From a virus (lineage: Duplodnaviria; Caudoviricetes): DNA of 64,000 bases. Position numbers and translations under genes: made by a program. Below the pieces are notes generated by a model, which saw only the letters and a list, made by a program, of their open reading frames with translations, was not told the origin of the DNA and did no database searches. Numbering within the stretch: the first letter of the stretch is position 1; each line of letters begins with the position of its first letter. The stretch is taken from IMG/VR virus record IMGVR_UViG_3300028833_000094, positions 1 through 64,000 of that record. The stretch is one strand, 5' to 3'. Shown here piece by piece: positions 7,598-53,265 of the stretch.

Positions 7598-7957
7598 CTA
7601 TTGTTCTATATAGTTATCAAACATTTGGGAGAACATGGAATGTTCCATGTAACAAACGGGACTTTCAATGTCTTTAAACATTCTTTCCCTTGCATCTTTA
7701 GTGATACCTACCAATCTTCCTGTACGATAGGGATTCTTTCCTGATTCACCATCCCTGACTTCAATAATCATCAAGCCCTTCTGGTCAATCACATTCTTAC
7801 AATCATCACAGAGGCCCATATAGATATCTCTGGGAGCTTCTACATCTCCTTTGAGCTTACCTAACAAGACTATACCAATCTCTTTGCCACAGCACTCACA
7901 ATGAGTTATGGAAGGATTGACTCCATGTTTCTTTGATAATGTTAGTCTTTCACTCAT
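7598..7957 (-). CDS. Putative Zn-binding protein
   Basis: CECCG ... CDDC pairs. Confidence 0.7.
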   Translation of the reverse strand: MSERLTLSKKHGVNPSITHCECCGKEIGIVLLGKLKGDVEAPRDIYMGLCDDCKNVIDQKGLMIIEVRDGESGKNPYRTGRLVGITKDARERMFKDIESPVCYMEHSMFSQMFDNYIEQ

Positions 7958-8733
7958 TTACTTGGTTTTTTAATGTCATTCAGTCTATCTGATATACTAT
8001 CACCAACCCATAAGAATATCTTTCCTTTAGCAGTATATTTATTATGACCACTTCCATCACATCCATTACAACATCTGGTGATATCTGAGACATGCATATT
8101 AAGGTCTCTACTGGCTGCAGAAGCAGAAGGATATGCCTTAAGGAATTTACCATCCAGAGAGTAGACATCTACTTCCCTATATTTAGGTCTTTTCTGACTT
8201 AGTCTATAGAGTTCTGCCTTAACTTCCTTTACCCTCTGCTTGATATCATCTTCAGGATATAGGAATATTCTCTTGTCAACAAACAGCCTTCTGCCTTTAC
8301 AGCAACTAGCAATAATCTGAGAAGAGACTCCCATTGATTGACCAGCCATCTTATAGGAAGGCCATTTAAACAAGAACCTTCCACCTAAGGTATATTCACA
8401 TATCTCTTTATTTGTACTGGCATGAGCAGGAAGCATCATTTGTACAGGATTGAGTTTCTTAAGTCTTTCCATGATATCATCTCCTCTATAGAGAAAAATG
8501 CTCATAGTCTTACTGCTATAAAGAAACTTTCCTTTACATATATTGCCAATAGCACTTCCACTTATATTATGGTAGTAACTGGCTTGGGTGATGCTTTCAA
8601 ATGATCTCAGGTAGACTCCTTCAAGTGTATATTCAACTACAGGCTTGTATAGCTCGTGTCTTCTTTTTACAGGTAATCTCTCTTGGAATTCCTTAAAATC
8701 ATCGAAATTATTAACTACGATATCTTCATCCAT
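7954..8733 (-). CDS. Tandem NUMOD1-repeat DNA-binding protein
   Basis: Three repeats of V.EY.L.G...(F/W/Y).S...A...I..(I/C)C(K/N)G; no nuclease motif seen. Confidence 0.75.
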   Translation of the reverse strand: MDEDIVVNNFDDFKEFQERLPVKRRHELYKPVVEYTLEGVYLRSFESITQASYYHNISGSAIGNICKGKFLYSSKTMSIFLYRGDDIMERLKKLNPVQMMLPAHASTNKEICEYTLGGRFLFKWPSYKMAGQSMGVSSQIIASCCKGRRLFVDKRIFLYPEDDIKQRVKEVKAELYRLSQKRPKYREVDVYSLDGKFLKAYPSASAASRDLNMHVSDITRCCNGCDGSGHNKYTAKGKIFLWVGDSISDRLNDIKKPSK

Positions 8734-40973: not shown

Positions 40974-41183
40974 TGCTGTTATTTATTAGGGTTGTGACAG
41001 TCTTTCCTGCCTCAGTAGTTGAGTTTGTAGCATTTGTAGCATTAGTGATGCTTCAGTCTCAGTTGCTGAGGATGAGTAATTCTTTGCTATATTATTACTG
41101 AGAATCAGTCAGTCTGCAAAGACCCAGGGGGGATGAACCCCAACTGTCAAAGACAGGGGGAGGTGTGATATGTTATGACACAT

Positions 41184-41308
41184 CTTTACACATATCTCAT
41201 ATTTTTATCTATTATCTCCCACCTTTACACATACTTTGCATTTTTCCCAAGTCCCCACGCCTTTACACATACCCAATATTTTTTGGAATATCTCCCCTTT
41301 TACACACA
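41184..41308 (+). repeat. Four direct repeats (C/T)TTTACACA(T/C)A with about 38-bp period at the strand switch
   Basis: Copies start at 41184, 41223, 41261, 41298. Confidence 0.75.
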
Positions 41309-41393
41309 TTCTTCATTCCACTTAGAGCAATTCTTAGCTATAGAACAGTCCAATCTTTTTATAATATTTTTGTGCATTATAAATAGTAGAAGT

Positions 41394-41786
41394 ATGGGAA
41401 ATATAAAGTTGCATAACATGGAAGTAATGGAGCAAGCTAAGTATAGGGCAAGACAAATGGATACTTGGCCTTCTCCATTAGAAGAAAGAATGAAAGAGTT
41501 CTTAGACAGGCACTATGTGGAATATGAGTCTCAAAAGATATTCTATATCTATGCTGATGATGGATGGATAATAAGGTATTATATAGCTGATTTCTATATA
41601 CCAGAGAAAGAGGTTATTATAGAGGTAGATGGTAAGTTCCATGATGAACACAAGCTACATGACAAGAACAGGACTAAGGATATTCAAGAACAGTATCCTT
41701 CTATAGAGGTATTAAGGTATAGGTGGAAAGATTTGTCTGATATGGATAAAATGGATGATCTATTGTGTAGGATAAACGCTATATAA
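41394..41786 (+). CDS. DUF559/Vsr-like endonuclease
   Basis: SPLEE, YIADFY, IEVDGKFH, EVLRY; ATG at 41394 is the likelier start. Confidence 0.85.
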   Translation: MGNIKLHNMEVMEQAKYRARQMDTWPSPLEERMKEFLDRHYVEYESQKIFYIYADDGWIIRYYIADFYIPEKEVIIEVDGKFHDEHKLHDKNRTKDIQEQYPSIEVLRYRWKDLSDMDKMDDLLCRINAI

Positions 41787-41838
41787 TTGATGTAAAGCAT
41801 TAAATCATAGGGATTTATACAGTTTTCTCGGCATTATT

Positions 41839-41869
41839 TTTGGTGAAATAACTTTATTTTGTACCTTTG
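41839..41869 (+). promoter_or_regulatory. Bacteroidota primary-sigma promoter
   Basis: TTTG(41839)-19 nt-TACCTTTG(41862). Confidence 0.7.
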
Positions 41870-41900
41870 CATCCAAGAAGTTTAACTAAAACTTGATACG

Positions 41901-42212
41901 ATGAAAGGGTTAAAGGAGTATCTTAGGAAACATGGTAGACACTTTACTGAGGAACTGGCTCATGCTGTCATGGGGAATACTTGGACCTATGATGAGATAG
42001 ATGCCATCATCCAGAAGAAGGTATACTATAATGTTTCTGGTTGTACTAAGGGGGATATAGTTTATTTCTGTAATGGAATGAATTTATATACCAAGCATGA
42101 TATTATAAAGAATGTGATTCCCATGCTTATGACAGTAGATGCCTATGAGGATATATTTACCTTATGGGCCAAAGTATATGGGGATTGCTTTGATTTTACC
42201 AAGTTTGTATAG
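41901..42212 (+). CDS. Hypothetical protein
   Basis: YLRKHGRHFTEELA; has its own promoter. Confidence 0.75.
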   Translation: MKGLKEYLRKHGRHFTEELAHAVMGNTWTYDEIDAIIQKKVYYNVSGCTKGDIVYFCNGMNLYTKHDIIKNVIPMLMTVDAYEDIFTLWAKVYGDCFDFTKFV

Positions 42213-42261
42213 AATAATTTTCTGTTTTATAATTATTTAAGAAATTTTGTTCAAGTAAAAT

Positions 42262-42292
42262 TTTGGTATTATATTATTAGTTTGTATCTTTG
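42262..42292 (+). promoter_or_regulatory. Bacteroidota primary-sigma promoter
   Basis: TTTG(42262)-19 nt-TATCTTTG(42285); no ORF follows. Confidence 0.7.
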
Positions 42293-42294
42293 CA

Positions 42295-42722
42295 GCGACC
42301 CTTGGAAGTAGTAGTTCCATGTTCAGGCTATTAAGGTCCAGTGGATATATAGAGCCTTAGAAGTCGGGTTGTAAGTGCTTATAGCACTGAGATATTCAGG
42401 ATACTCAAGCCCCGATAGGTCAAAAAATGCTTGGTTATAAGTCTGGTGTCCCGCCTAACTACTATGGGAAAGAGGCTGAGGGTAAAGTGGACATTAGGGA
42501 GTTCTAAAGCTTACGAGTTAAGTTTATACTGACCGCCCAGATGAAGTGCCAAGTTAATGAGGTTAGGAAAATCCTTTAGGGACTTCTTATACCTTTTTGA
42601 ATAGTAAAATATCTCAGGCTATGCAGCTGTTGTGAAACACCTGTGTACTTACAAATACTAGGATACAATTTAAAAAGTGTCTTCAAGATAAGAGAGGCCT
42701 AAGTGTAGGCTTCTCTTTCTTT
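42295..42722 (+). ncRNA. Candidate large structured ncRNA (about 420 nt)
   Basis: Promoter upstream, terminator hairpin at 42690-42722, no ORF of 60 aa or more in any frame, many complementary segments. Confidence 0.6.
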
Positions 42723-42726
42723 ATTT
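42690..42726 (+). terminator. Intrinsic terminator
   Basis: AAGAGAGGCCTA-AGTG-TAGGCTTCTCTT hairpin followed by T-rich tract. Confidence 0.75.
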
Positions 42727-42796
42727 CTTAGCATTATCCTAAGATTCATTGTACCTAAAAGATTGTTTCTTATTTTTGCAACAAAATAAGAAGAAT

Positions 42797-43405
42797 ATGA
42801 ATAAATATTTTATTGCAGCTATAGTGGTTCTCTTTGCTACCATAGGATTTATGTGGAAGCAAGTAAGGGATGCAAATGAGAAATGGAAGGTTTCTGAGGG
42901 TAATGTAAAGGCCTATGCATCCATGTTTGACAATAGCAAGAAACAGAATGCTGCTTTGCTATTGACTGTAGATCAGCTTGAATATTTCAAGGATTCTGTA
43001 CTTCAGGAGCTTGATGCTACCAGGAAGGAACTGAAGGTAAAGGATAAGGACTTAAAGGCTTTACAGCAGGTTAAGTCCAGTTTCTCCAGGACAGATACTA
43101 TTACAATAACCCAGGTGGATACTTTGTTTAAAGAACCCTCCTTGGCTATTGATACTGTATTGGGAGATGAATGGTATAAGCTTAATCTAGGACTTAAGTA
43201 TCCTTCTACGATTGCAGTAAAGCCATACTTTAAGAGTGAGAAACATATCGTAGTCTCCAGTAAGAAAGAGACTGTTAATCCTCCAAAGAAGTTCTTTCTT
43301 TTGAGATGGTTTCAGAAAAAGCATCGAGTTCTTCATATAGATGTTGTTGAGAAAAATCCTTATGTGAGTGATGAAACTAGTAGATACGTTGAGATTATCA
43401 GGTAA
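42797..43405 (+). CDS. Spanin (Rz)-like lysis protein, putative
   Basis: Single N-terminal TM, coiled coil, DTxT repeats, KKFFLLRWF...NPY C-terminus. Confidence 0.6.
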   Translation: MNKYFIAAIVVLFATIGFMWKQVRDANEKWKVSEGNVKAYASMFDNSKKQNAALLLTVDQLEYFKDSVLQELDATRKELKVKDKDLKALQQVKSSFSRTDTITITQVDTLFKEPSLAIDTVLGDEWYKLNLGLKYPSTIAVKPYFKSEKHIVVSSKKETVNPPKKFFLLRWFQKKHRVLHIDVVEKNPYVSDETSRYVEIIR

Positions 43406-43431
43406 CGGTTTGTTTGTTTTTTGTGAATAGA

Positions 43432-44616
43432 TTATCTATTTGAATTTTCTGTTTTTGTTTTTCCTCCTGCCTGTGAAGGTGGGAGGTTTTTAATGGCTTC
43501 CACTACTGTCTCATCCAATAGCTTGGCATATACCTGTTCTGTAATCCTGGTAGAGGAGTGACCACATATTCTGGATACTATCTGCATGGGTACCCCTTCA
43601 TTTAATAATAAGGTAGCTCCTGTATGTCTTGCCCAATGTGTACTCAGGGGTTTGTCTATTCCAGATGATTGTGCTACTACCTTCAGGTACTCATTGTACT
43701 TGACATTGGATATAATGGGTAGTCTGCCATTATATTTCATCAGGATATTCCAGGCAGGGGATAGGATAGGGATGGTAAAGGGTTTATCTGTCTTCAGCCT
43801 GTGTCCAGTATAGACCTTCATATCTTTAATCTCTTGTACAGATTTTATATTAAAGTATCTCAAATCCGAATAGCTTAGACAGGTATAGGTTTGGAAAATA
43901 AACACATCTCTGACTTTCTCCAGACTTTCAGTAGGCATCTTAGAGGTTTTTATCTTATGGAATTCTTCTGGAGTCAGGCATTTCTCAAGACTCTTTATGT
44001 CCCTGCCTTTATCTATACAGATATTCTTATAGGGATTCTTAGTCATGTGACCTTCATTAATAGCATCCAAGATGACAGAATTAAGATGCCTGTGGTAATT
44101 ATGCCATTTAGTATAGAGACACATTCCCTTACTTGCCAGGTAATTGTCAAAAGCTATAAGATTTAATTCATTTACATCCTTGAATCTCTTAATACCTCCC
44201 CATTCTTTAAAGACTTTCAGAAACAAGTTGTACCTGTCTATGCTTCTTGGAGCCTTACCATATTTCCTTATATCAAATCTCTGATGACAATAATCCAGGA
44301 AATTAATATTCTTTCTCTGAATCTTTAACCTGGCTGGTATGGAGAATATATCTATATTCCCCTCATTGGTCATATCAAGGAGTATCTGCCTTACATCAGT
44401 AAGCATCTTATCCAGAGTACTGCTAATCTGAAGGATATCAGGACAATTCAGGATCTTCCCTTTCTTCCACTGGTTTATATACAGCATGATACCAGTGGCA
44501 ATGTACTTTTGCTTATAGTTATAGGTAATTCTCATCTCTACTGCAGACTTTACAGTAAGGGATGCATTCTTTCTTCTGTTGAACACAAAAGTGATTTGAG
44601 GCTGTTTGTTAATCAT
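43432..44616 (-). CDS. int: Tyrosine integrase, Bacteroidota (IntDOT-like) type
   Basis: N-terminal arm-binding pattern (VEMRITY..KQKYIATGI...QW), TCLSYSD, RLKT, HWARH, GHSS, VYA. Confidence 0.92.
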   Translation of the reverse strand: MINKQPQITFVFNRRKNASLTVKSAVEMRITYNYKQKYIATGIMLYINQWKKGKILNCPDILQISSTLDKMLTDVRQILLDMTNEGNIDIFSIPARLKIQRKNINFLDYCHQRFDIRKYGKAPRSIDRYNLFLKVFKEWGGIKRFKDVNELNLIAFDNYLASKGMCLYTKWHNYHRHLNSVILDAINEGHMTKNPYKNICIDKGRDIKSLEKCLTPEEFHKIKTSKMPTESLEKVRDVFIFQTYTCLSYSDLRYFNIKSVQEIKDMKVYTGHRLKTDKPFTIPILSPAWNILMKYNGRLPIISNVKYNEYLKVVAQSSGIDKPLSTHWARHTGATLLLNEGVPMQIVSRICGHSSTRITEQVYAKLLDETVVEAIKNLPPSQAGGKTKTENSNR

Positions 44617-44664
44617 ATTTAAAAAGTAAAATAGGTAGTTAACTTCTCTTTTGAAGAAGCTTAG

Positions 44665-44894
44665 TGTAATAAATAAAAAAGTAGGGTGTAATAAATATGT
44701 AATAAATTAAGGGCTAAAAAATGGATGATAGGCCTGTATTTCCTACCATCCCTTGGGTTCTTAGTACACCCGCAGGGGTTCGAACCCTGGACACCCTGAT
44801 TAAGAGTCAGGTGCTCTACCAACTGAGCTACGGGTGCATGTTGAGGGGGTATGTAATGAATTTTAGGAAGAGCTGTCATAAATATGTAATGAAT
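44665..44894. mobile_element. attP-like site: tRNA-Lys core flanked by six arm-type repeats
   Basis: TGT(A/C)AT(A/G)AAT at 44665, 44687, 44698 and 44852, 44874, 44885. Confidence 0.7.
44765..44837 (-). tRNA. tRNA-Lys(CTT)
   Basis: GCACCCG/CGGGTGT acceptor, TAGCTCAGTTGGTAGAGC, CCTGA-CTCTTAA-TCAGG, GGTTCGAACCC. Confidence 0.96.
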
Positions 44895-44930
44895 TATATA
44901 AAATACGTGAAGATTGTAGGGGTTTGGTTG

Positions 44931-44938
44931 CAAAGATA
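44931..44938 (-). promoter_or_regulatory. -7 promoter element facing tRNA-Lys/int
   Basis: TATCTTTG on minus strand. Confidence 0.55.
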
Positions 44939-45036
44939 GTGAATAATCCTGAGATAGGAGAAGGATGGGAACCTTAAATAATTTTAAAATTAGGATAAAA
45001 TTACAAAGAAGATTAGGTTATTTAAAGAAGATTGTT

Positions 45037-45044
45037 TATCTTTG
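45037..45044 (+). promoter_or_regulatory. -7 promoter element for the packaging block
   Basis: TATCTTTG upstream of 45161. Confidence 0.55.
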
Positions 45045-45160
45045 TGGCGTATTTCATAACTTCATAAGTTATTGAGAAATAGGATAATAACGAAAAAGGT
45101 TAAACTATTACTTTAAGACAATTTTCATTATACTAATAATTAAATTAAAAGGATACAATC

Positions 45161-45376
45161 ATGGCAATATCAAAAAAACAGGAACAACAGTGGCAGGCTC
45201 AGGATGATGCCAGAGTCATGGCCCAGTATCAGGAGATTATCAATGACAAGGCAAGGATGGGCAGAGCCATCAAGGAAGCCAGTAAGCAAGCCTCAGACTT
45301 AAGTAAGAGGGCTAATGCAATGAAGAATGCCGCCAATGTGAAGGCAAATGGTGGCACTCTCAGGAGGAAGAAGTAA
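45161..45376 (+). CDS. Small basic helical protein
   Basis: WQAQDDARVM...; first gene of block. Confidence 0.7.
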   Translation: MAISKKQEQQWQAQDDARVMAQYQEIINDKARMGRAIKEASKQASDLSKRANAMKNAANVKANGGTLRRKK

Positions 45377-45408
45377 TCTGGTTATTAGACTTCCATATAT
45401 AATAAGGT

Positions 45409-45837
45409 ATGTCAGTAGAAGAGAAGAACCAGGAATATGATTCAGAGCCAGTGAAATACTGTGCCAGATGTTTCTCTTTGAAGATAAAGTATGAAGAGAG
45501 CATTGATGCTGAATGCTGCGGTGACTGTGGAAGTTCTGATATATTGGAATCCTCTATAGAAGAATGGGAGAAGAAGTATGAGAGGAAGTATGGGAAGAAG
45601 TTTGTCCAGAAGCAGGAAGATCCTCAGAAGAGCTTTATCTTCAAGATGTCTCTTGACAAACTAAAGCTCAAAGTCTACGAGAGCAGTAACTGGAGAGAGA
45701 TTATCAAGGCCATCTATCCCAAGTTTCCAGGAGGCTATGGAAAAGCAGACTCCATCATACTATTCTTTGATACACTCATCAAGCAGAATAAACTGAATGA
45801 GCTGAAATTATTTTTGTATAAGCATTTTAAATATTAG
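45409..45837 (+). CDS. Zn-ribbon protein
   Basis: YDSEPVKYCARCFSLKI...CGDCGS. Confidence 0.75.
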   Translation: MSVEEKNQEYDSEPVKYCARCFSLKIKYEESIDAECCGDCGSSDILESSIEEWEKKYERKYGKKFVQKQEDPQKSFIFKMSLDKLKLKVYESSNWREIIKAIYPKFPGGYGKADSIILFFDTLIKQNKLNELKLFLYKHFKY

Positions 45838-45863
45838 AATAATTAATAAAAATATTAGAAACT

Positions 45864-46223
45864 ATGGAAGAGCAGAAGTTAAAGAGCAAGGAAATTAAGA
45901 TGAATCCCAATGCAGAGGCAAAGCCTCAGCCTGCTGAGAATCAGAAACTCACTTATGAGCAGTTGAATCAGGCTTGTATGGAGCTGAGTCAGCAGAACCA
46001 GCAGATGCAGACCTATATCAAGAAACTCCATCAGCAGATGGGGCAGATGAATGCTCTCTTGGAGACAAGACGTATGGACTATCTCTTTAAGGTGATTGAG
46101 CTTCACACCAAGTATGAGAAATGGTTTGATTCTGATTTTGTCCTGAAGTGTGCTGAAGAGGTACAGGAATCCCTGACTATCCCTGAGGAAACAGAGCAGG
46201 AAGATAACAAAGAGCAAAACTGA
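45864..46223 (+). CDS. Coiled-coil protein
   Basis: KLTYEQLN...RMDYLFKVI. Confidence 0.75.
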   Translation: MEEQKLKSKEIKMNPNAEAKPQPAENQKLTYEQLNQACMELSQQNQQMQTYIKKLHQQMGQMNALLETRRMDYLFKVIELHTKYEKWFDSDFVLKCAEEVQESLTIPEETEQEDNKEQN

Positions 46224-46225
46224 TT

Positions 46226-46666
46226 ATGGAGAGTGAAGTTCAGACAAAGAAAGAAGGATGGAACTGGTCAAGGCATAAGCCCAATAATGTACTCAACATT
46301 GATGCCAGTTCCAGCATGGACTTCTTCAAATGGTGGTGTACCCTGATACACCCCTTTGTAGAACTGACCCCCAGGGAGATAGATGTCATAGCCTCCTTCC
46401 TCAAACAGAGGCTTGAACTTTCCCAGCAGGTTCCTCCCGAACTGGTGGACAGGCTTTTGATGAGCAATGAGACCAAGAGTAAGGTTATTGAAGACTGTCA
46501 TATTACACAGTCACACTTCTATGTGGTGATGAGTACCTTAAAGAAGAAGAAAGTAATCTCTGACAAAGGTATCAATCCCAGGCTGATTCCTAATGTAAGG
46601 AAGGATGACAACGGAGTATTCCAGTTACTGATTCTCATTAAGAATAACCAGAAGAATGACCTATGA
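46226..46666 (+). CDS. Winged-HTH DNA-binding protein, putative
   Basis: LTPREIDV...ITQSHFYVVMSTLKKKKVI. Confidence 0.65.
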   Translation: MESEVQTKKEGWNWSRHKPNNVLNIDASSSMDFFKWWCTLIHPFVELTPREIDVIASFLKQRLELSQQVPPELVDRLLMSNETKSKVIEDCHITQSHFYVVMSTLKKKKVISDKGINPRLIPNVRKDDNGVFQLLILIKNNQKNDL

Positions 46667-46967
46667 AGAAATCATAGCTCAGGTATCAGAGTCTACGGGA
46701 GTGTCCAGGACATTAGTAGATAAGACCTATAAGGCTTATTGGAAGGCAGTCAGGGAGCATATTACATCCCTTCCCTTAAAGGAAGAACTTACAGATGAAG
46801 AGTTCCTTAATCTCAGGCCAAATGTCAATATCCCCTCTATAGGCAAGCTCTATGTCACGTTAGACAGATACCATAACCTAAAGAAGCAGTTCAAGCTTTA
46901 CTATAAGAATTATAAAGGAAAAGACAAATATAAAAAGGATAGCAATGATAAAGATAAAGAAGATTAA
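46656..46967 (+). CDS. HU/IHF-like protein
   Basis: MTYEEIIAQVSESTGVS...VNIPSIGKLYV. Confidence 0.7.
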   Translation: MTYEEIIAQVSESTGVSRTLVDKTYKAYWKAVREHITSLPLKEELTDEEFLNLRPNVNIPSIGKLYVTLDRYHNLKKQFKLYYKNYKGKDKYKKDSNDKDKED

Positions 46968-48061: not shown

Positions 48062-50308
48062 GTGATGGATAATGTAATTTTTAATAAATGCCAGACTCCC
48101 CTGGAAGAGCTGGAGCTAGGAAAGTATCCACAGGAGGTACAGGAGAATTTCTGGGACTTTATGAATAATGTTCCCTTTATCAGATGGATGGTTTCCCCTA
48201 ACAGGCCCCTTGTATCCCAGCTTCCAAGGGATGAGTTTGGCAGGGCTATCATAGATGTTACCAAGCCTCCTATATTAGAAGGTTCAGACTATTTCAGGCA
48301 ATCAGCCTTACAATGGCAGGAGAATGAAAAATACACCAACCTTAGACCTAATGCCAATCCTAACAGTGAATATGGAAGATGGATAAGAGAGGAGAGACAG
48401 AGAGGCTGGGAAGGCTTTGTCAATCCTGATACAGGTATGTGGGTAACAGGAGACTACTACTGGATGCTGAACTATTGTCCTATGCATTTGGTAGTAAAGA
48501 GAGATGATGGCTTTGAGATGCGTACTACCAGGCATCCAGGTTTCTGGGATGGGCAGTTTCTCCTTTCTCACTATGTTCTTCAGGCGAGACAACATAAGAA
48601 ACATGCAGATGCACTGGCCAGTCGTGGTAAAGGTAAGACCTCCTTTGGTGCTGGAATGCTTTCCAAGAGATTTGAGATAGGAGAGTTTGAGAATAACAGA
48701 AGTGAGGTGCAATGTATGGTTACTGCTACGGATAGGACCAAGCTGATAGGAACTAACCAGATACTCTCCGTCTTTGTAGATAACATAGACTTCTGTGCCA
48801 AGAACACACAGTTTGCTGCAAGAAGATTAAAGAGTAGTGTACAGGAGCTTGTATGGCAGTCAGGCTACAAGAAGTCAGGAAGTGATGTAGCCTATGGCAG
48901 TAAGAACTCAGTATCAGGTATTATCACAGGTGTCAATCAGGATAAGCTGAATGGTTCGCGTGGTGTACTTTATCTGATTGAGGAGGCAGGTATTTTCAAG
49001 AATCTAAGAGAGATGTATAACATGATCAGGCCTTCAGTAGAGCAAGGTTCCTCTGTATTCGGTGAAATCTATATGTATGGTACGGCTGGTGATGACCAGA
49101 GTGACTTTACAGCCTTTGCAGAAATGTTTTATTCTCCAGACGGTTATAACCTGTATGGACTGGAAAATGTATATGACAAGGAAGGTCAGGGCAGGAAGGA
49201 GTGTGGCTTCTTCTATCCAGCCTATATGAACTATGATGATACTTGTATAGACAAGGATGGTAATTCAGATGTCAGTAAGGCACTCTTGATGCTTTGTATG
49301 GACAGGTATAAAGTGAAGTATGGTTCAACAGATATCAATACTATTACCAAGCGTATTTCACAATATCCTATTACTCCACAGGAAGCTATCATCAGGAGTC
49401 AGGGAAATATGTTCCCTATTACAGAACTGAACAACAGGCTTAATCAGATAGATAATAATCCTAATGAGTATGATGATGTCTATGTAGGAGAGCTTATACA
49501 GGAAAAAGATGGTACTATACAATTCCAGCCCACAGGTGAGCTTCCCATCAGAGACTTTCCTACTAAGGATAATAAGGTAGTGGGAGCATTGGAAATATAT
49601 GAGATGCCTCAGAAGAACAGTGAAGGAAAGGTTCCTTATGACAGATATGGATTTGGATTGGACCCCTTTGATGATGATGAATCAGGTACTATGTCATTAG
49701 GAAGTATCTTTGTCATGGACTTCTGGACAGACAGGATAGTAGCAGAGTTTACAGGAAGGCCACAATTTGCCAATGACCTGTATGAGAAAGTGAGACTGCT
49801 ATGCCTATTCTATAACATGAAGGGACTCTATGAGAATAACTTAAAAGGTATTTTCTCCTATTTCAGTATGAGGAACTGTACCTATATGTTGGCTGATACT
49901 CCAGAGTACTTAAGAGACAGACAGCTTGTCACCTCTATTGGATATGGTAATAAGGCAAAAGGTGTAAGAGCTGTTACTCCTATTATCAAGGCAGGATTCA
50001 GGATGATCAGGGACTGGCTGCTTAAACCAGTTACCAAGATAGAGCATGATGCAGAAGGTAATGAGGTAGAAGTTACCGTACCCAATCTATATAATATAAG
50101 GAATAGGGCTTTGCTCAAAGAATTGATACAATGGAATCAATATGGTAACTTCGATAGAGTGATGGCCCTTGTACAATTGATGCTCTATAGGGAAGAGAAG
50201 ATGATTCTCTATCAGGGAGATATCAAGAGTGCGGAACATGTACCAACAGGTCTTGAGGCAGATGACTATTGGAGTAAGAATTATCCAGGGAAGAAAGACC
50301 AATGGTAA
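48062..50308 (+). CDS. terL: Terminase large subunit
   Basis: SRGKGKT Walker A, YLIEEAG Walker B, YGTAG, GLDPFD nuclease, NFDRV. Confidence 0.93.
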   Translation: MMDNVIFNKCQTPLEELELGKYPQEVQENFWDFMNNVPFIRWMVSPNRPLVSQLPRDEFGRAIIDVTKPPILEGSDYFRQSALQWQENEKYTNLRPNANPNSEYGRWIREERQRGWEGFVNPDTGMWVTGDYYWMLNYCPMHLVVKRDDGFEMRTTRHPGFWDGQFLLSHYVLQARQHKKHADALASRGKGKTSFGAGMLSKRFEIGEFENNRSEVQCMVTATDRTKLIGTNQILSVFVDNIDFCAKNTQFAARRLKSSVQELVWQSGYKKSGSDVAYGSKNSVSGIITGVNQDKLNGSRGVLYLIEEAGIFKNLREMYNMIRPSVEQGSSVFGEIYMYGTAGDDQSDFTAFAEMFYSPDGYNLYGLENVYDKEGQGRKECGFFYPAYMNYDDTCIDKDGNSDVSKALLMLCMDRYKVKYGSTDINTITKRISQYPITPQEAIIRSQGNMFPITELNNRLNQIDNNPNEYDDVYVGELIQEKDGTIQFQPTGELPIRDFPTKDNKVVGALEIYEMPQKNSEGKVPYDRYGFGLDPFDDDESGTMSLGSIFVMDFWTDRIVAEFTGRPQFANDLYEKVRLLCLFYNMKGLYENNLKGIFSYFSMRNCTYMLADTPEYLRDRQLVTSIGYGNKAKGVRAVTPIIKAGFRMIRDWLLKPVTKIEHDAEGNEVEVTVPNLYNIRNRALLKELIQWNQYGNFDRVMALVQLMLYREEKMILYQGDIKSAEHVPTGLEADDYWSKNYPGKKDQW

Positions 50309-51756: not shown

Positions 51757-53265
51757 ATGGGTAAATTAGGTAAATTTCAGAGTTTTGAGTTCGACAGCTG
51801 GGGAAAGACCAGTAAGTTGAACCACCTTGGTGGTATTTTCAGGTTGCATCCTCAGATGGCAACAGAGATGATGGTCCAGCTTTTGGCTTTCCATAAGGGT
51901 AAGACCTTGGACACATTCCTCTCACAGTTCCCCACTAAGGAATTTGACAGTGATGATGAGTACACCTGGCAGGTGATTGGTTCTATGGTTAAGAACCTTC
52001 CCCTTGTAGAAGCTCGTACTCTTGATGGCACAGTGGTAGCTGACAATGTAAATGCAGGTGCCAATGGTGAACCTTTCTATGTAGTATTTGATGAAGACCT
52101 GTTTGCTGATGGTGCAGTGATTGTTGGTGAGCTGAATGAAATCTATCCCCTCCGCATTTTGGGTGATGGCTATCGTGAAGGTACTAACATTCGCTATAAG
52201 GTACAGCTGATGGGTGGTGTTATTGGTGGTATGCCTGGTGAGCAGCTCCAGCCTGGTAAGAGGTTCTCTAAGGAGTATGCTCCTGTTGAGCGTGAGTTCT
52301 CTCGCAAGGTTGATGATATCACCTTCTCCAGTCCTATCATGATGCGTAATGAGTTCAGCTCTATCCGTATGCAGCATAAGGTATCTGGTGCTCTCATCAA
52401 CAAGAAGATTGCCTTTGGTATTCCTGTAGAAGTTCCCAACAATAATGGCTACACTGTCAAGACCTATGACATGTGGATGCACTATGAGCAGTGGGTACTT
52501 GAGCAGCAGTGGAATGCAGCTAAGAACAAGCTGATTGCTTATGGCCGTAGCAACCGCAACAAGAATGGTGAGTATCTTGACATTGGTAAGAGTGGTGAGG
52601 TTATTCGCATGGGTGCAGGTCTGTTCCAGCAGATGGAAGTTAACAACACAGACTTCTACAACAACTTCTCTCTGAAGAAGATTGAGGATGCCCTGTACAA
52701 CCTGAGTGCAGCTAATCTTGACATGAAAGACCGTGTATTCATCCTGAAGACTGGTGAGCGTGGTGCTGCCCAGTTCCATAAGGCAGCTCTTGATACTATC
52801 AGTGGCTGGCAAGCATTCACTACCAATGCAGACCAGATTGGTATGGTACGCAAGGTGAACTCTCCCCTGCATGACAATGCTTTGAGTATTGGTGCTCAGA
52901 TTGTTGAGTTCAAGGCTCCTAATGGTGTAACTGTACGTGTAGATGTAGATCCCATGTATGATGATCCTGTACGCAACAAGATTATGCATCCTAATGGTGG
53001 TCCTGCCTATTCTTACCGTTATGACATCTTTGACATTGGTACTATGGACCAGCCTAACATCTTCAAGGTAGGTGTCAAGGGTCAGGTAGGTGACTACACT
53101 TCTTATGAGTGGGGCTTCCGCAATCCATTCACTGGCAAGATGGGCAATGAGTACATGAGCCATGATGAGGATTCTGCAACTATTCACAAGTTCACTACTA
53201 CTGGTGTATGTGTTCTTGATCCTACAAGGACAATGAGCATTATTCCTGCAGTACTTCGTGGTTAA
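51757..53265 (+). CDS. Major capsid protein (crAss-like)
   Basis: 502 aa; strong high-expression codon bias; EYTWQ, MRNEFS.IR, GAGLFQQ, TGERG, PMYDD motifs recalled from crAss-like MCPs. Confidence 0.88.
   Translation: MGKLGKFQSFEFDSWGKTSKLNHLGGIFRLHPQMATEMMVQLLAFHKGKTLDTFLSQFPTKEFDSDDEYTWQVIGSMVKNLPLVEARTLDGTVVADNVNAGANGEPFYVVFDEDLFADGAVIVGELNEIYPLRILGDGYREGTNIRYKVQLMGGVIGGMPGEQLQPGKRFSKEYAPVEREFSRKVDDITFSSPIMMRNEFSSIRMQHKVSGALINKKIAFGIPVEVPNNNGYTVKTYDMWMHYEQWVLEQQWNAAKNKLIAYGRSNRNKNGEYLDIGKSGEVIRMGAGLFQQMEVNNTDFYNNFSLKKIEDALYNLSAANLDMKDRVFILKTGERGAAQFHKAALDTISGWQAFTTNADQIGMVRKVNSPLHDNALSIGAQIVEFKAPNGVTVRVDVDPMYDDPVRNKIMHPNGGPAYSYRYDIFDIGTMDQPNIFKVGVKGQVGDYTSYEWGFRNPFTGKMGNEYMSHDEDSATIHKFTTTGVCVLDPTRTMSIIPAVLRG

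Follow-up and report, generated by a model that had tools for sequence, protein, structure and literature searches.

A probable integration module with a tRNA-Lys attachment site in a Steigviridae-like rumen crAss phage

The integrase gene and presumed attachment site described here occupy positions 43432 to 44938 of a 64,000-nucleotide stretch (the window) of a 116,467 bp crAss-like phage genome from the sheep gut, whose contig ends overlap by about 130 bp, so that the assembly is complete and circular. Judged by its MCP, TerL, lysis regulator and zinc-finger factor, the phage would be a Steigviridae-like member of the Crassvirales: the MCP, which matches phrog_11589, is 61-63% identical to those of IAS virus, cr112_1 and crAss001 (63% for IAS virus and crAss001), and TerL matches phrog_6681. 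The first-pass annotation had placed the integrase antisense in the late block. The gene does lie on the minus strand, but at a switch between strand groups and not within the late block, with a short plus-strand group at 41175-43405 (an endonuclease, a 103-aa ORF and a lysis-regulator homologue) on one side and a plus-strand late operon, running from 45161 to TerL at 48062, on the other. The lysis-regulator homologue (42749..43405, plus strand) is convergent with the integrase gene and matches the crAss001-type "lysis regulatory protein/holin" at 45%. The late operon opens with two genes (45161..45837, plus strand), one for a basic protein of 71 aa and one for a zinc-finger protein of 142 aa, a homologue of the crAss001-type "putative transcription factor"; both mark the phage side of the P arm. 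When the region was compared with deposited phages by megablast, only a 56-bp tRNA match was returned.

The integrase (43432..44616, minus strand), located 148 bp downstream of a tRNA-Lys(CTT) gene, is an intact ORF of 394 aa of the IntCTnDOT type, and the earlier call of a full-length tyrosine integrase is borne out by three Pfam domains, namely Arm-DNA-bind_5 (25.0 bits, cut-off 22.6), Phage_int_SAM_5 (34.9 bits, cut-off 22.3) and Phage_integrase PF00589 (45.4 bits, cut-off 27.1), which give an architecture of N-terminal arm-binding, SAM_5 core-binding and catalytic domains. Its C-terminal motifs align with those of solved integrases and of XerA/XerD. The catalytic set would consist of S248 (at the Arg I position), R273, K275, H327, R330, H353 and Y363, of which K275, H327, R330, H353 and Y363 are unchanged in 25 homologues. 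In the IntCTnDOT subgroup, the catalytic Arg I is found at either of two alternative positions (PMC8138268), and in the same 25 homologues the two positions covary perfectly, with S248 accompanied by R273 in 21 and R248 by Ala or Ser at 273 in the other four. The first catalytic Arg is probably supplied by R273, and the suggestion that Ser replaces it at the usual position, as in IntDOT, is upheld by this covariation. The domain set and the Arg I position both point to a tyrosine recombinase of the IntCTnDOT subgroup. Compared with a 99%-identical copy (L011), dN/dS is 0.02, and to judge from its sequence the integrase is intact and under strong purifying selection.

The presumed core of attP is the whole tRNA-Lys(CTT) gene (44764..44837, minus strand), recognised by ARAGORN and by the Rfam tRNA model (71.1 bits) as the canonical tRNA upstream of the integrase that had been read from the letters. 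A plain phage-encoded tRNA would look alike. The P' arm (44665..44707, minus strand) holds three arm-type sites, each reading ATTTATTACA in integrase orientation, at 44698, 44687 and 44665, and the P arm (44852..44894, minus strand) holds ATTCATTACA, ATTTATGACA and ATTCATTACA (same orientation) at 44885, 44874 and 44852. Thus, the 10-mer does occur three times on each side of the tRNA with identical spacing, as first noticed: in both arms two sites lie 11 bp apart and the third follows 22 bp on towards the integrase, and all six TGTMATRAAT sites share one orientation. The motif occurs 7 times in the window against 1.56 expected, a count reached in none of 100 shuffles. Between the last arm site and the integrase start lies a block of 31 bp (44634..44664, minus strand) with a short inverted repeat, CTTCT..AGAAG, that is identical in a relative with an 86% identical integrase (L002) and may serve as operator or bind an accessory factor. 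The tRNA is followed by a terminator hairpin (44716..44751, minus strand; 10-bp stem, -17 kcal/mol, then six U), homologous to the hairpin that follows the identical host tRNA-Lys. On its other side a TATCTTTG box (44931..44938, minus strand), which fits the Bacteroidota -7 consensus TAnnTTTG, points to the tRNA and the integrase; it is kept in all relatives examined, also precedes host tRNA genes and is probably a promoter. Across the whole 116,467-bp genome we found no second piece of the tRNA-Lys and no att repeat beyond a chance 12-mer, which extends the earlier failure to see a second tRNA fragment and leaves the genome with no second att copy. By analogy with the relatives, the crossover would fall in the T-arm/3' acceptor part of the tRNA.

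The same layout recurs in syntenic relatives. At least 14 crAss-like contigs have the integrase gene in the same place, flanked by the late operon and the lysis-regulator gene; their integrases are 56-86% identical and, where the locus reaches it, TerL is 77-80% identical. Arm repeats stand on both sides of a tRNA or of a tRNA 3' fragment in all eight relatives read, these being the ones with assembled upstream sequence. Their geometry is constant, while the core varies (whole tRNA-Lys, whole tRNA-Val or T-arm/3' ends of tRNA-Ser) and the arm motif changes together with the integrase. Alignment with L002 shows one difference in the 60 positions of the arm 10-mers, none in the 74 of the tRNA and 127 in the 410 (31%) of the remaining intergenic sequence (Fisher p = 4e-8); the arm sites have been kept as well as the tRNA, unlike the spacers. 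The core fragments of two relatives, L004 and L007, match the 3' end of a Prevotella tRNA-Ser(CGA) over 44/46 and 26/26 bp, respectively, and such 3' fragments are non-functional and of no use in translation. RepL-like genes are found a few genes from the integrase in relatives.

Homologous integrases in host chromosomes show the other half of the pattern. Among 80 homologous integrase loci in genomes of rumen Prevotella and other Bacteroidales, 63 lie just 3' of a tRNA on the same strand, at a median distance of 264 bp. Flanks were read at eight of these Prevotella/Bacteroidales loci: arm repeats occur in seven, only on the integrase side, and upstream of the tRNA in none, which is the pattern of attL. 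The three-site arm geometry, with other motifs, is also seen in integrated Prevotella copies. One of the nearest bacterial homologues (L017) belongs to an NBU-like mobilizable element with a relaxase, at a tRNA-Ser. The search for a near-identical Bacteroidota tRNA-Lys that had been proposed at the outset was successful: the tRNA-Lys(CTT) is 74/74 identical in one of 401 sampled genomes (G186) from the family of the Prevotella MAG and 73/74 identical in two more. With a host locus that carries the identical tRNA-Lys (L094), the phage shares 151 bp at 85%, covering the tRNA and the terminator hairpin. We presume from this sequence identity that a Prevotella-like rumen bacterium provides attB in the form of its tRNA-Lys(CTT) gene.

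Host-phage junctions were found for two relatives. In L014, housekeeping genes are followed by tRNA-Ser(CGA), the P' arm, an integrase that falls within the 99%-supported clade of crAss integrases in the integrase tree, and four genes with homologues in crAss relatives. In L212, a pectate lyase and a CotH protein are followed by tRNA-Ser(CGA), a 5'-truncated integrase gene and four crAss genes in phage order. Homologues of the lysis regulator come after the integrase in both contigs, and both junctions are of the attL type. The two could be chimeric, because they are short metagenomic contigs joined at sequence that phage and host share; a chimera is less likely for L212, because a deletion distinguishes its junction from the free form. 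Neither an attR nor a full-length prophage of the relatives was seen, and for the 116-kb phage itself neither an integrated copy nor an attL or attR junction turned up in the JGI contig scan, the Logan contigs or the 401 genomes, so that the junction search proposed with the first reading succeeded for the relatives and not for this phage. The exact paired-arm pattern gave 96 hits in JGI metagenome contigs, mostly in unrelated AT-rich sequence and none at a junction; the few true ones either have the attP form or lie on contigs that are cut within the tRNA. When contigs from four Logan runs are placed on 43400-46400, all of them break inside the tRNA, at a summed depth of about 20,000x contributed by many organisms, and attP is therefore indistinguishable from attL and attR in these contigs. 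A joint from 44634 to 45077 that skips the whole attP (runs X3 and X12) has only 23 matching letters on one side and was read as stemming from relatives with a different core and not from a deletion form. Close-clade TerL was found in 0 of 401 sampled genomes from the genus of the Prevotella MAG, the single TerL match being distant, TAG-recoded and at 36%. The MAGs that hold L014 and L090 gave no MCP match, although MAGs are incomplete.

As for the control of lysogeny, no repressor or excisionase was recognised with Pfam and NCBIfam among the ORFs around the module (with Pfam, 20 ORFs at 35.5-48 kb), in agreement with the initial remark that no CI-like repressor is visible. Small divergent regulators are easily missed. 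The ORF at 46656-46967 has a sub-threshold HU/IHF-like match (E = 0.034).

Taken together, we consider it likely that 43432-44938 is a complete integration module, made up of a heterobivalent integrase and its attP, of a Steigviridae-like rumen crAss phage. Since relatives of the module adjoin tRNA genes in Prevotella chromosomes, this branch of phages very probably integrates, and the arms, the conserved layout, the attL homologues, the identical attB candidate and the junctions of relatives all favour the original proposal that the phage owns an attP and could integrate at tRNA-Lys. We infer integration by the 116-kb phage itself, as well as the position of the crossover and the maintenance and reversal of lysogeny. 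In the mechanism that we envisage, attP would comprise a P arm with three sites, a core formed by the whole tRNA-Lys(CTT) and its terminator, and a P' arm with three sites. The N-terminal domain of the integrase would bind the six 10-mers, while its core-binding and catalytic domains would act inside the tRNA, probably in the T-arm or at the 3' end, and the tRNA core would recombine with its identical counterpart, the tRNA-Lys(CTT) gene of a Prevotella-like rumen bacterium. Because the core is a whole tRNA, both junctions should keep an intact gene after integration, with the integrase beside attL.

Other explanations account for parts of these data. The integrase and its site might, like Cre/lox or Xer, work on the phage genome alone, to circularise it or to resolve multimers of an episomal phage-plasmid, with no integration into the host. 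Integrated copies are indeed scarce, the prototypic crAssphage has been reported to be a phage-plasmid that does not integrate, and RepL genes are known from other Crassvirales (PMC10983915), to which the RepL-like genes near the integrase in relatives may be added. We nevertheless regard this as improbable, as the recombinases of resolution systems are simple and have neither arm-binding domains nor arm sites, the core here is host tRNA sequence, and the homologues encoded in host chromosomes adjoin tRNA genes and show the attL pattern, in addition to the two junction contigs. It is just as hard to believe, if not slightly harder, that the tRNA merely serves translation and that the integrase is decaying or hitch-hiking, in which case the module would no longer mediate lysogeny. 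Steigviridae crAss-like phages do often encode tRNAs (PMC13503771), ARAGORN found a second one, Arg-CCT, in this genome, and the 20 ORFs yielded neither repressor nor excisionase; against this stand the strong purifying selection on the integrase with its invariant catalytic residues, the conservation of the arm sites on a background that has diverged by 31%, and the relatives that hold at this place only tRNA 3' fragments, useless for translation. That the integrase belongs to a small integrative element, a satellite or mobilizable island inserted in a phage tRNA gene, is suggested by the NBU-like mobilizable elements among its nearest bacterial homologues, such as L017 with its relaxase, and is still highly improbable: both arms flank one core with no second att copy in the genome, the integrase gene is alone between the att site and conserved crAss genes, and its position is kept in a phage clade that has diverged and has integrases that group together in one clade. 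Finally, we give almost no credence to an assembly artefact that joined phage and bacterial DNA, a concern raised with the first reading and nourished by the breaks inside the tRNA in many samples, because both flanks of the site have equal contig depth in four runs from four studies and the same junctions on both sides are present in L002, a 4.1-kb contig that spans the whole site, and in a circularly permuted contig of 113.9 kb cut 32 bp 3' of the tRNA.

The integration module thus preferred resembles the lambda-type POP' attP in that the integrase has an N-terminal arm-binding domain, arm-type sites flank a core shared with the host and integrated homologues retain one arm beside the integrase; it differs in that the integrase belongs to the IntCTnDOT-type sequence family and in that the six co-oriented arm sites form two identically spaced triplets. 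With IntDOT and the integrases of NBU1 and NBU2 it shares the Arm-DNA-bind_5, SAM_5 and catalytic domains, the alternative downstream Arg (as in IntDOT), Bacteroidales hosts and tRNA 3'-end targets. IntN2 of NBU2, for example, integrates at the 3' end of Bacteroides tRNA-Ser genes (PMC6692515, PMC8138268), whereas here the target is tRNA-Lys(CTT) and, instead of a conjugative or mobilizable element, the carrier is a 116-kb podophage-type crAss genome. Among deposited phages, the integrases of LoVEphage, BI-TP1 and PV4-TP1, temperate 70-kb siphophages of Bacteroides and Phocaeicola, match best and are distant in sequence (36% identity over 93% of the length); no crAss-like genome with a close homologue was among the phage-collection matches inspected. 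Fionnbharth-like mycobacteriophages are likewise temperate, target a host tRNA gene and carry a whole tRNA of the same isotype, but in their case the core of attP measures about 10 bp, and the host tRNA, which is destroyed, is complemented by a phage tRNA located elsewhere (PMC10865867).

The mechanism of recombination is textbook, and it is its presence in a Steigviridae-like crAss lineage that is unusual. Cultured crAss001, the IAS virus group and Carjivirus communis share MCP (61-63%), TerL, the lysis regulator and the zinc-finger factor with this phage but are without an integrase, and cultured crAss-like phages have been portrayed as unable to enter lysogeny or as phage-plasmids (PMC8375218, PMC11054128, PMC10983915). 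The initial statement that characterised crAss-like phages are not known to integrate is therefore correct for the cultured isolates and too broad for the group, as integrases and predicted prophages of some crAss-like lineages are already present in catalogue papers (PMC9980608, PMC12454387, PMC13503771). In the catalogue studies that count integrase genes, we found no description of an attachment site for crAss-like phages. We would further propose, tentatively and at slightly less than even chances, that the whole rumen Steigviridae-like clade is temperate and that its integrase was repeatedly retargeted (Ser, Lys, Val) by way of host tRNA segments, which would have been taken at excision and have left tandem tRNA fragments in some attP sites, while in the 116-kb phage the whole functional tRNA-Lys with its terminator would serve both as attP core and as phage tRNA.

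The module bears on the question of how crAss-like phages manage to persist alongside their hosts. Cultured members lack lysogeny genes and have been called virulent, carrier-state or plasmid-like. With arms, core, candidate attB and host resolved to the base, and with its ties to host-phage junctions in Prevotella, the present module makes integrative lysogeny testable in a concrete case, predicts the host of an uncultured rumen phage and might furnish a tool for integration at tRNA-Lys in Prevotella, a genus in which genetic manipulation is difficult. Should the clade indeed be temperate, a crAss lineage would for the first time have a defined attP/attB pair and a predicted host, and its integrative lysogeny could be tested directly.

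Judged from its sequence, the source of the window is a crAss-like phage; its major capsid protein (51757-53265) shares 61-63% identity with the capsid proteins of IAS virus, cr112_1 and crAss001, and 48062-50308 encodes a 748-aa crAss-type large terminase (TerL). The window covers the first 64 kb of a single contig of 116,467 bp whose ends overlap by ~130 bp, which indicates a complete, circularly assembled genome, and the phage sequence is present in both sheep and cattle gut metagenome runs. The int gene (43432-44616, minus strand), placed in the late block by the first-pass annotation, in fact occupies the boundary between two plus-strand gene groups. It encodes a 394-aa tyrosine integrase with Arm-DNA-bind_5, Phage_int_SAM_5 and Phage_integrase domains, the domain set of Bacteroidota arm-binding integrases. 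Over 120 metagenomic proteins match it at 60% identity or more, and K275, H327, R330, H353 and Y363 are invariant across 25 of these when aligned. The proposed replacement of the first catalytic Arg by Ser, as in IntDOT, was supported: position 248 (S248, motif TCLSYSD) is Ser in 21 of 25, all with R273, and Arg in the other four, which have Ala or Ser at 273. This swap is a property of the IntCTnDOT subgroup, including IntDOT and the NBU integrases, in which the arginine sits at one of two alternative places (PMC8138268). Relative to a 99%-identical copy from a different sample, dN/dS was 0.02, and the gene is evidently intact and under selection.

The start of int is 148 bp from a canonical tRNA-Lys(CTT) gene (44764-44837, minus strand, as int; ARAGORN; Rfam, 71.1 bits), which lies upstream on the same strand and is followed at its 3' end by a terminator hairpin with a 10-bp stem and U6 run. 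The 10-mer TGTMATRAAT occurs three times on each side of the tRNA, all in one orientation, at 44665, 44687 and 44698 (P' arm, towards int) and at 44852, 44874 and 44885 (P arm, towards the late operon), with one further copy in the 64 kb; the total of 7 compares with 1.56 expected and was reached in 0 of 100 shuffles. As such, the first-pass annotation was correct in every detail about the integrase, the tRNA and the two triplets, and its failure to see a second tRNA-Lys fragment extends to the whole 116,467-bp genome, where no other att-like repeat was found either. Compared with its relative L002, this phage has a single mismatch in the 60 arm-site positions and none in the 74 of the tRNA, against 127 in the 410 positions of the remaining intergenic region (p = 4e-8). 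Three blocks at 44960-45077 (CAAAGATAAACAAT, TTAAATAACCTAAT and TTATTTAAGGTT, int orientation), placed between the late operon start and attP and conserved in most relatives, are probably the regulatory region for the divergent late and int promoters. Further into the late operon, the N-terminus of a 103-aa protein (46656-46967) resembles HU/IHF below threshold (Bac_DNA_binding, E = 0.034); a protein that bends DNA could help to assemble the intasome, but this gene is one of the late genes kept in all syntenic relatives. The DUF559/endonuclease-I-like ORF at 41175-41786 has an implausible 70-residue N-terminal extension, its true start probably lying near residue 75, and its homologues keep their position in relatives and in the host-phage junction contig L212.

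Integrases 56-86% identical occupy the equivalent position in at least 14 other crAss-like contigs, several of them 108-123 kb long: on one side are the first genes of the late operon, on the way to TerL, and on the other is a convergent gene homologous to that for the 'lysis regulatory protein' of crAss001. TerL is 77-80% identical in those relatives whose locus extends to it. In all eight relatives with the upstream region read, arm repeats precede a tRNA or part of one, which is followed by three more arm repeats and then int; in this int-side triplet two repeats are 11 bp apart and the third is 22 bp further on. The arm motif shifts with the integrase, being ATTYATKACA in this phage and ATTnTGTACA or ATTCTTTACA in relatives. 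The attP core is a whole tRNA-Lys(CTT) in L002 and a whole tRNA-Val(CAC) in L010; L004-L008 and L215 retain just the stretch of tRNA-Ser-like genes from the T-arm to the 3' end, in some cases as two tandem fragments. Such pieces are incapable of tRNA function yet are kept at one place by int, and are thus sensible only as recombination cores. The tandem 3'-end fragments in L005 (from 2888 upstream, about -120 to -210 from int), L006 and L007, and, in L010 (5680-5710), a piece of a different tRNA shortly before the whole tRNA-Val, resemble traces of earlier imprecise excisions or target changes. In some relatives, small RepL-like genes (PF05732), taken as a sign of a plasmid-like lifestyle in Crassvirales (PMC10983915), lie a few genes from int (L012, 9402-9866; also near P0054 and P0100), and none was seen at the corresponding place of the window.

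Scanning a single genome for each prokaryote species revealed 80 loci with integrase relatives (39-69% identity), nearly all in rumen Prevotella and other Bacteroidales. At 63 of these 80, int is preceded on its own strand by a tRNA gene whose end is 214-928 bp away (median 264), the tRNA being Ser-CGA (28), Ser-TGA (20), Lys-TTT (7), Ser-GGA (5), Gln (2) or Arg (1); six of the 80 loci are too short for a tRNA call. Where flanks were read, seven of eight loci had arm-like repeats between tRNA and int only, as in the junction contig L014 (GTATTACAC three times on the int side, 11 + 22 spacing), the bacterial locus L042 had no obvious repeats, and all eight had a normal Bacteroidota promoter and no repeats upstream of the tRNA. 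The chromosomal loci hence have the layout of an attL state, in contrast to the two-armed attP of the phage genomes. At one such locus, the isolate Prevotella aff. ruminicola Tc2-24 carries an NBU-like mobilizable element that encodes a relaxase, and the NBU2 integrase is known to direct integration at a tRNA-Ser 3' end (PMC6692515). When 98 integrases were placed in a maximum-likelihood tree, those borne by crAss-like phages and that of L014 all fell into one clade (SH-aLRT 99), with the remaining 78 bacterial integrases outside it.

The nearest thing to direct evidence of integration by the clade comes, at the level of assembled sequence, from two contigs in which bacterial DNA is joined to crAss-type DNA at a tRNA. 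In L014 (18.5 kb, from a Prevotella MAG), ApbE, M3 peptidase, S41 peptidase and 5-formyl-THF cyclo-ligase genes precede tRNA-Ser(CGA), the P' arm and a full-length Int, past which lie four genes that all have homologues in crAss relatives and encode a lysis-regulator homologue, a 116-aa protein, a DUF5675 protein and a 113-aa protein; the cores of L004 and L007 match its tRNA at 44/46 and 26/26 bp. In L212 (15 kb, IMG/VR), genes for a pectate lyase with a dockerin and for a protein with a CotH domain lead to a promoter and an entire tRNA-Ser(CGA). An int without its first ~24 codons follows (7928-8020), the P' arm being entirely missing, and after it come four intact crAss genes, ordered as in the phage and sharing 48-90% identity with their counterparts in free relatives; L215, the closest free form, has the identical 32-bp tRNA-Ser 3' end as attP core. 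Mis-assembly could hardly yield the deletion in L212, which resembles the decay of a prophage that has become fixed and suggests that this prophage end is no longer able to excise, although both contigs are short and metagenomic. Junctions of the kind sought by the first-pass annotation were found for these two relatives, both of attL type, and for this phage neither attL nor attR was present in JGI contigs; contigs of public runs break inside the tRNA, where attP and attL/attR are indistinguishable.

The search that the first-pass annotation had proposed for a near-identical Bacteroidota tRNA-Lys was successful: in a sample of 401 genomes of the family to which the Prevotella MAG belongs, tRNA-Lys(CTT) matches the phage copy at 74/74 positions in one (G186), 73/74 in two and ~91% in most. 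The similarity in G186 runs through the terminator hairpin (151 bp, 85%) and ends at the tRNA 5' end, and its locus has a host promoter and no arm sites, so that it looks like an empty attB. The phage thus carries a copy of a host tRNA-Lys gene and terminator, probably captured via imprecise excision. Among 401 genomes sampled from the genus of the Prevotella MAG, no TerL close to the clade was present. One of them, G633, has a distant crAss-type TerL (L216, G633:C203:14565-16484; 36% identity) whose seven in-frame TAG codons assign it to a crAss-like phage with a recoded stop codon, which is either integrated in G633 or was binned with it. As the first-pass annotation had stated for a CI-like repressor, no repressor or excisionase was recognised among the 20 ORFs neighbouring the module. 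Given the conserved site, the attL-state homologues, the junctions of relatives and the identical tRNA, we consider it quite likely, in support of the first-pass interpretation, that the phage owns a functional int/attP module mediating integration into a host tRNA-Lys(CTT); integration by this very phage, its crossover point and its lysogeny control are inferred.

The mechanism is the textbook one, in which a heterobivalent tyrosine integrase and its POP' attP target a tRNA 3' end, in the IntCTnDOT/NBU version of Bacteroidota, and the unusual part is the carrier. Cultured crAss-like phages, in contrast to this phage with its int/attP module, have no lysogeny genes, and the literature presents them as unable to form lysogens or as phage-plasmids (PMC8375218, PMC11054128, PMC10983915). 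Earlier mentions of integrases in crAss-like phages stay at catalogue level: PMC9980608 cites Yutin et al. 2021, 12 crAss-like prophages have been predicted in pig MAGs (PMC12454387), and integrase modules were reported in Intestiviridae and Zeta genomes and, rarely, in Steigviridae (PMC13503771); we found no description of an attachment site for crAss-like integrases in the literature. The attP core is a whole tRNA instead of the usual 3' fragment, and whereas mycobacteriophages with 'tRNA-dependent lysogeny' destroy the host gene and make up for it with a separately encoded tRNA of their own (PMC10865867), here the whole tRNA is itself the core. Together, the module is of a familiar type, occurs in a lineage of phages where it was not expected, and can be tested directly.
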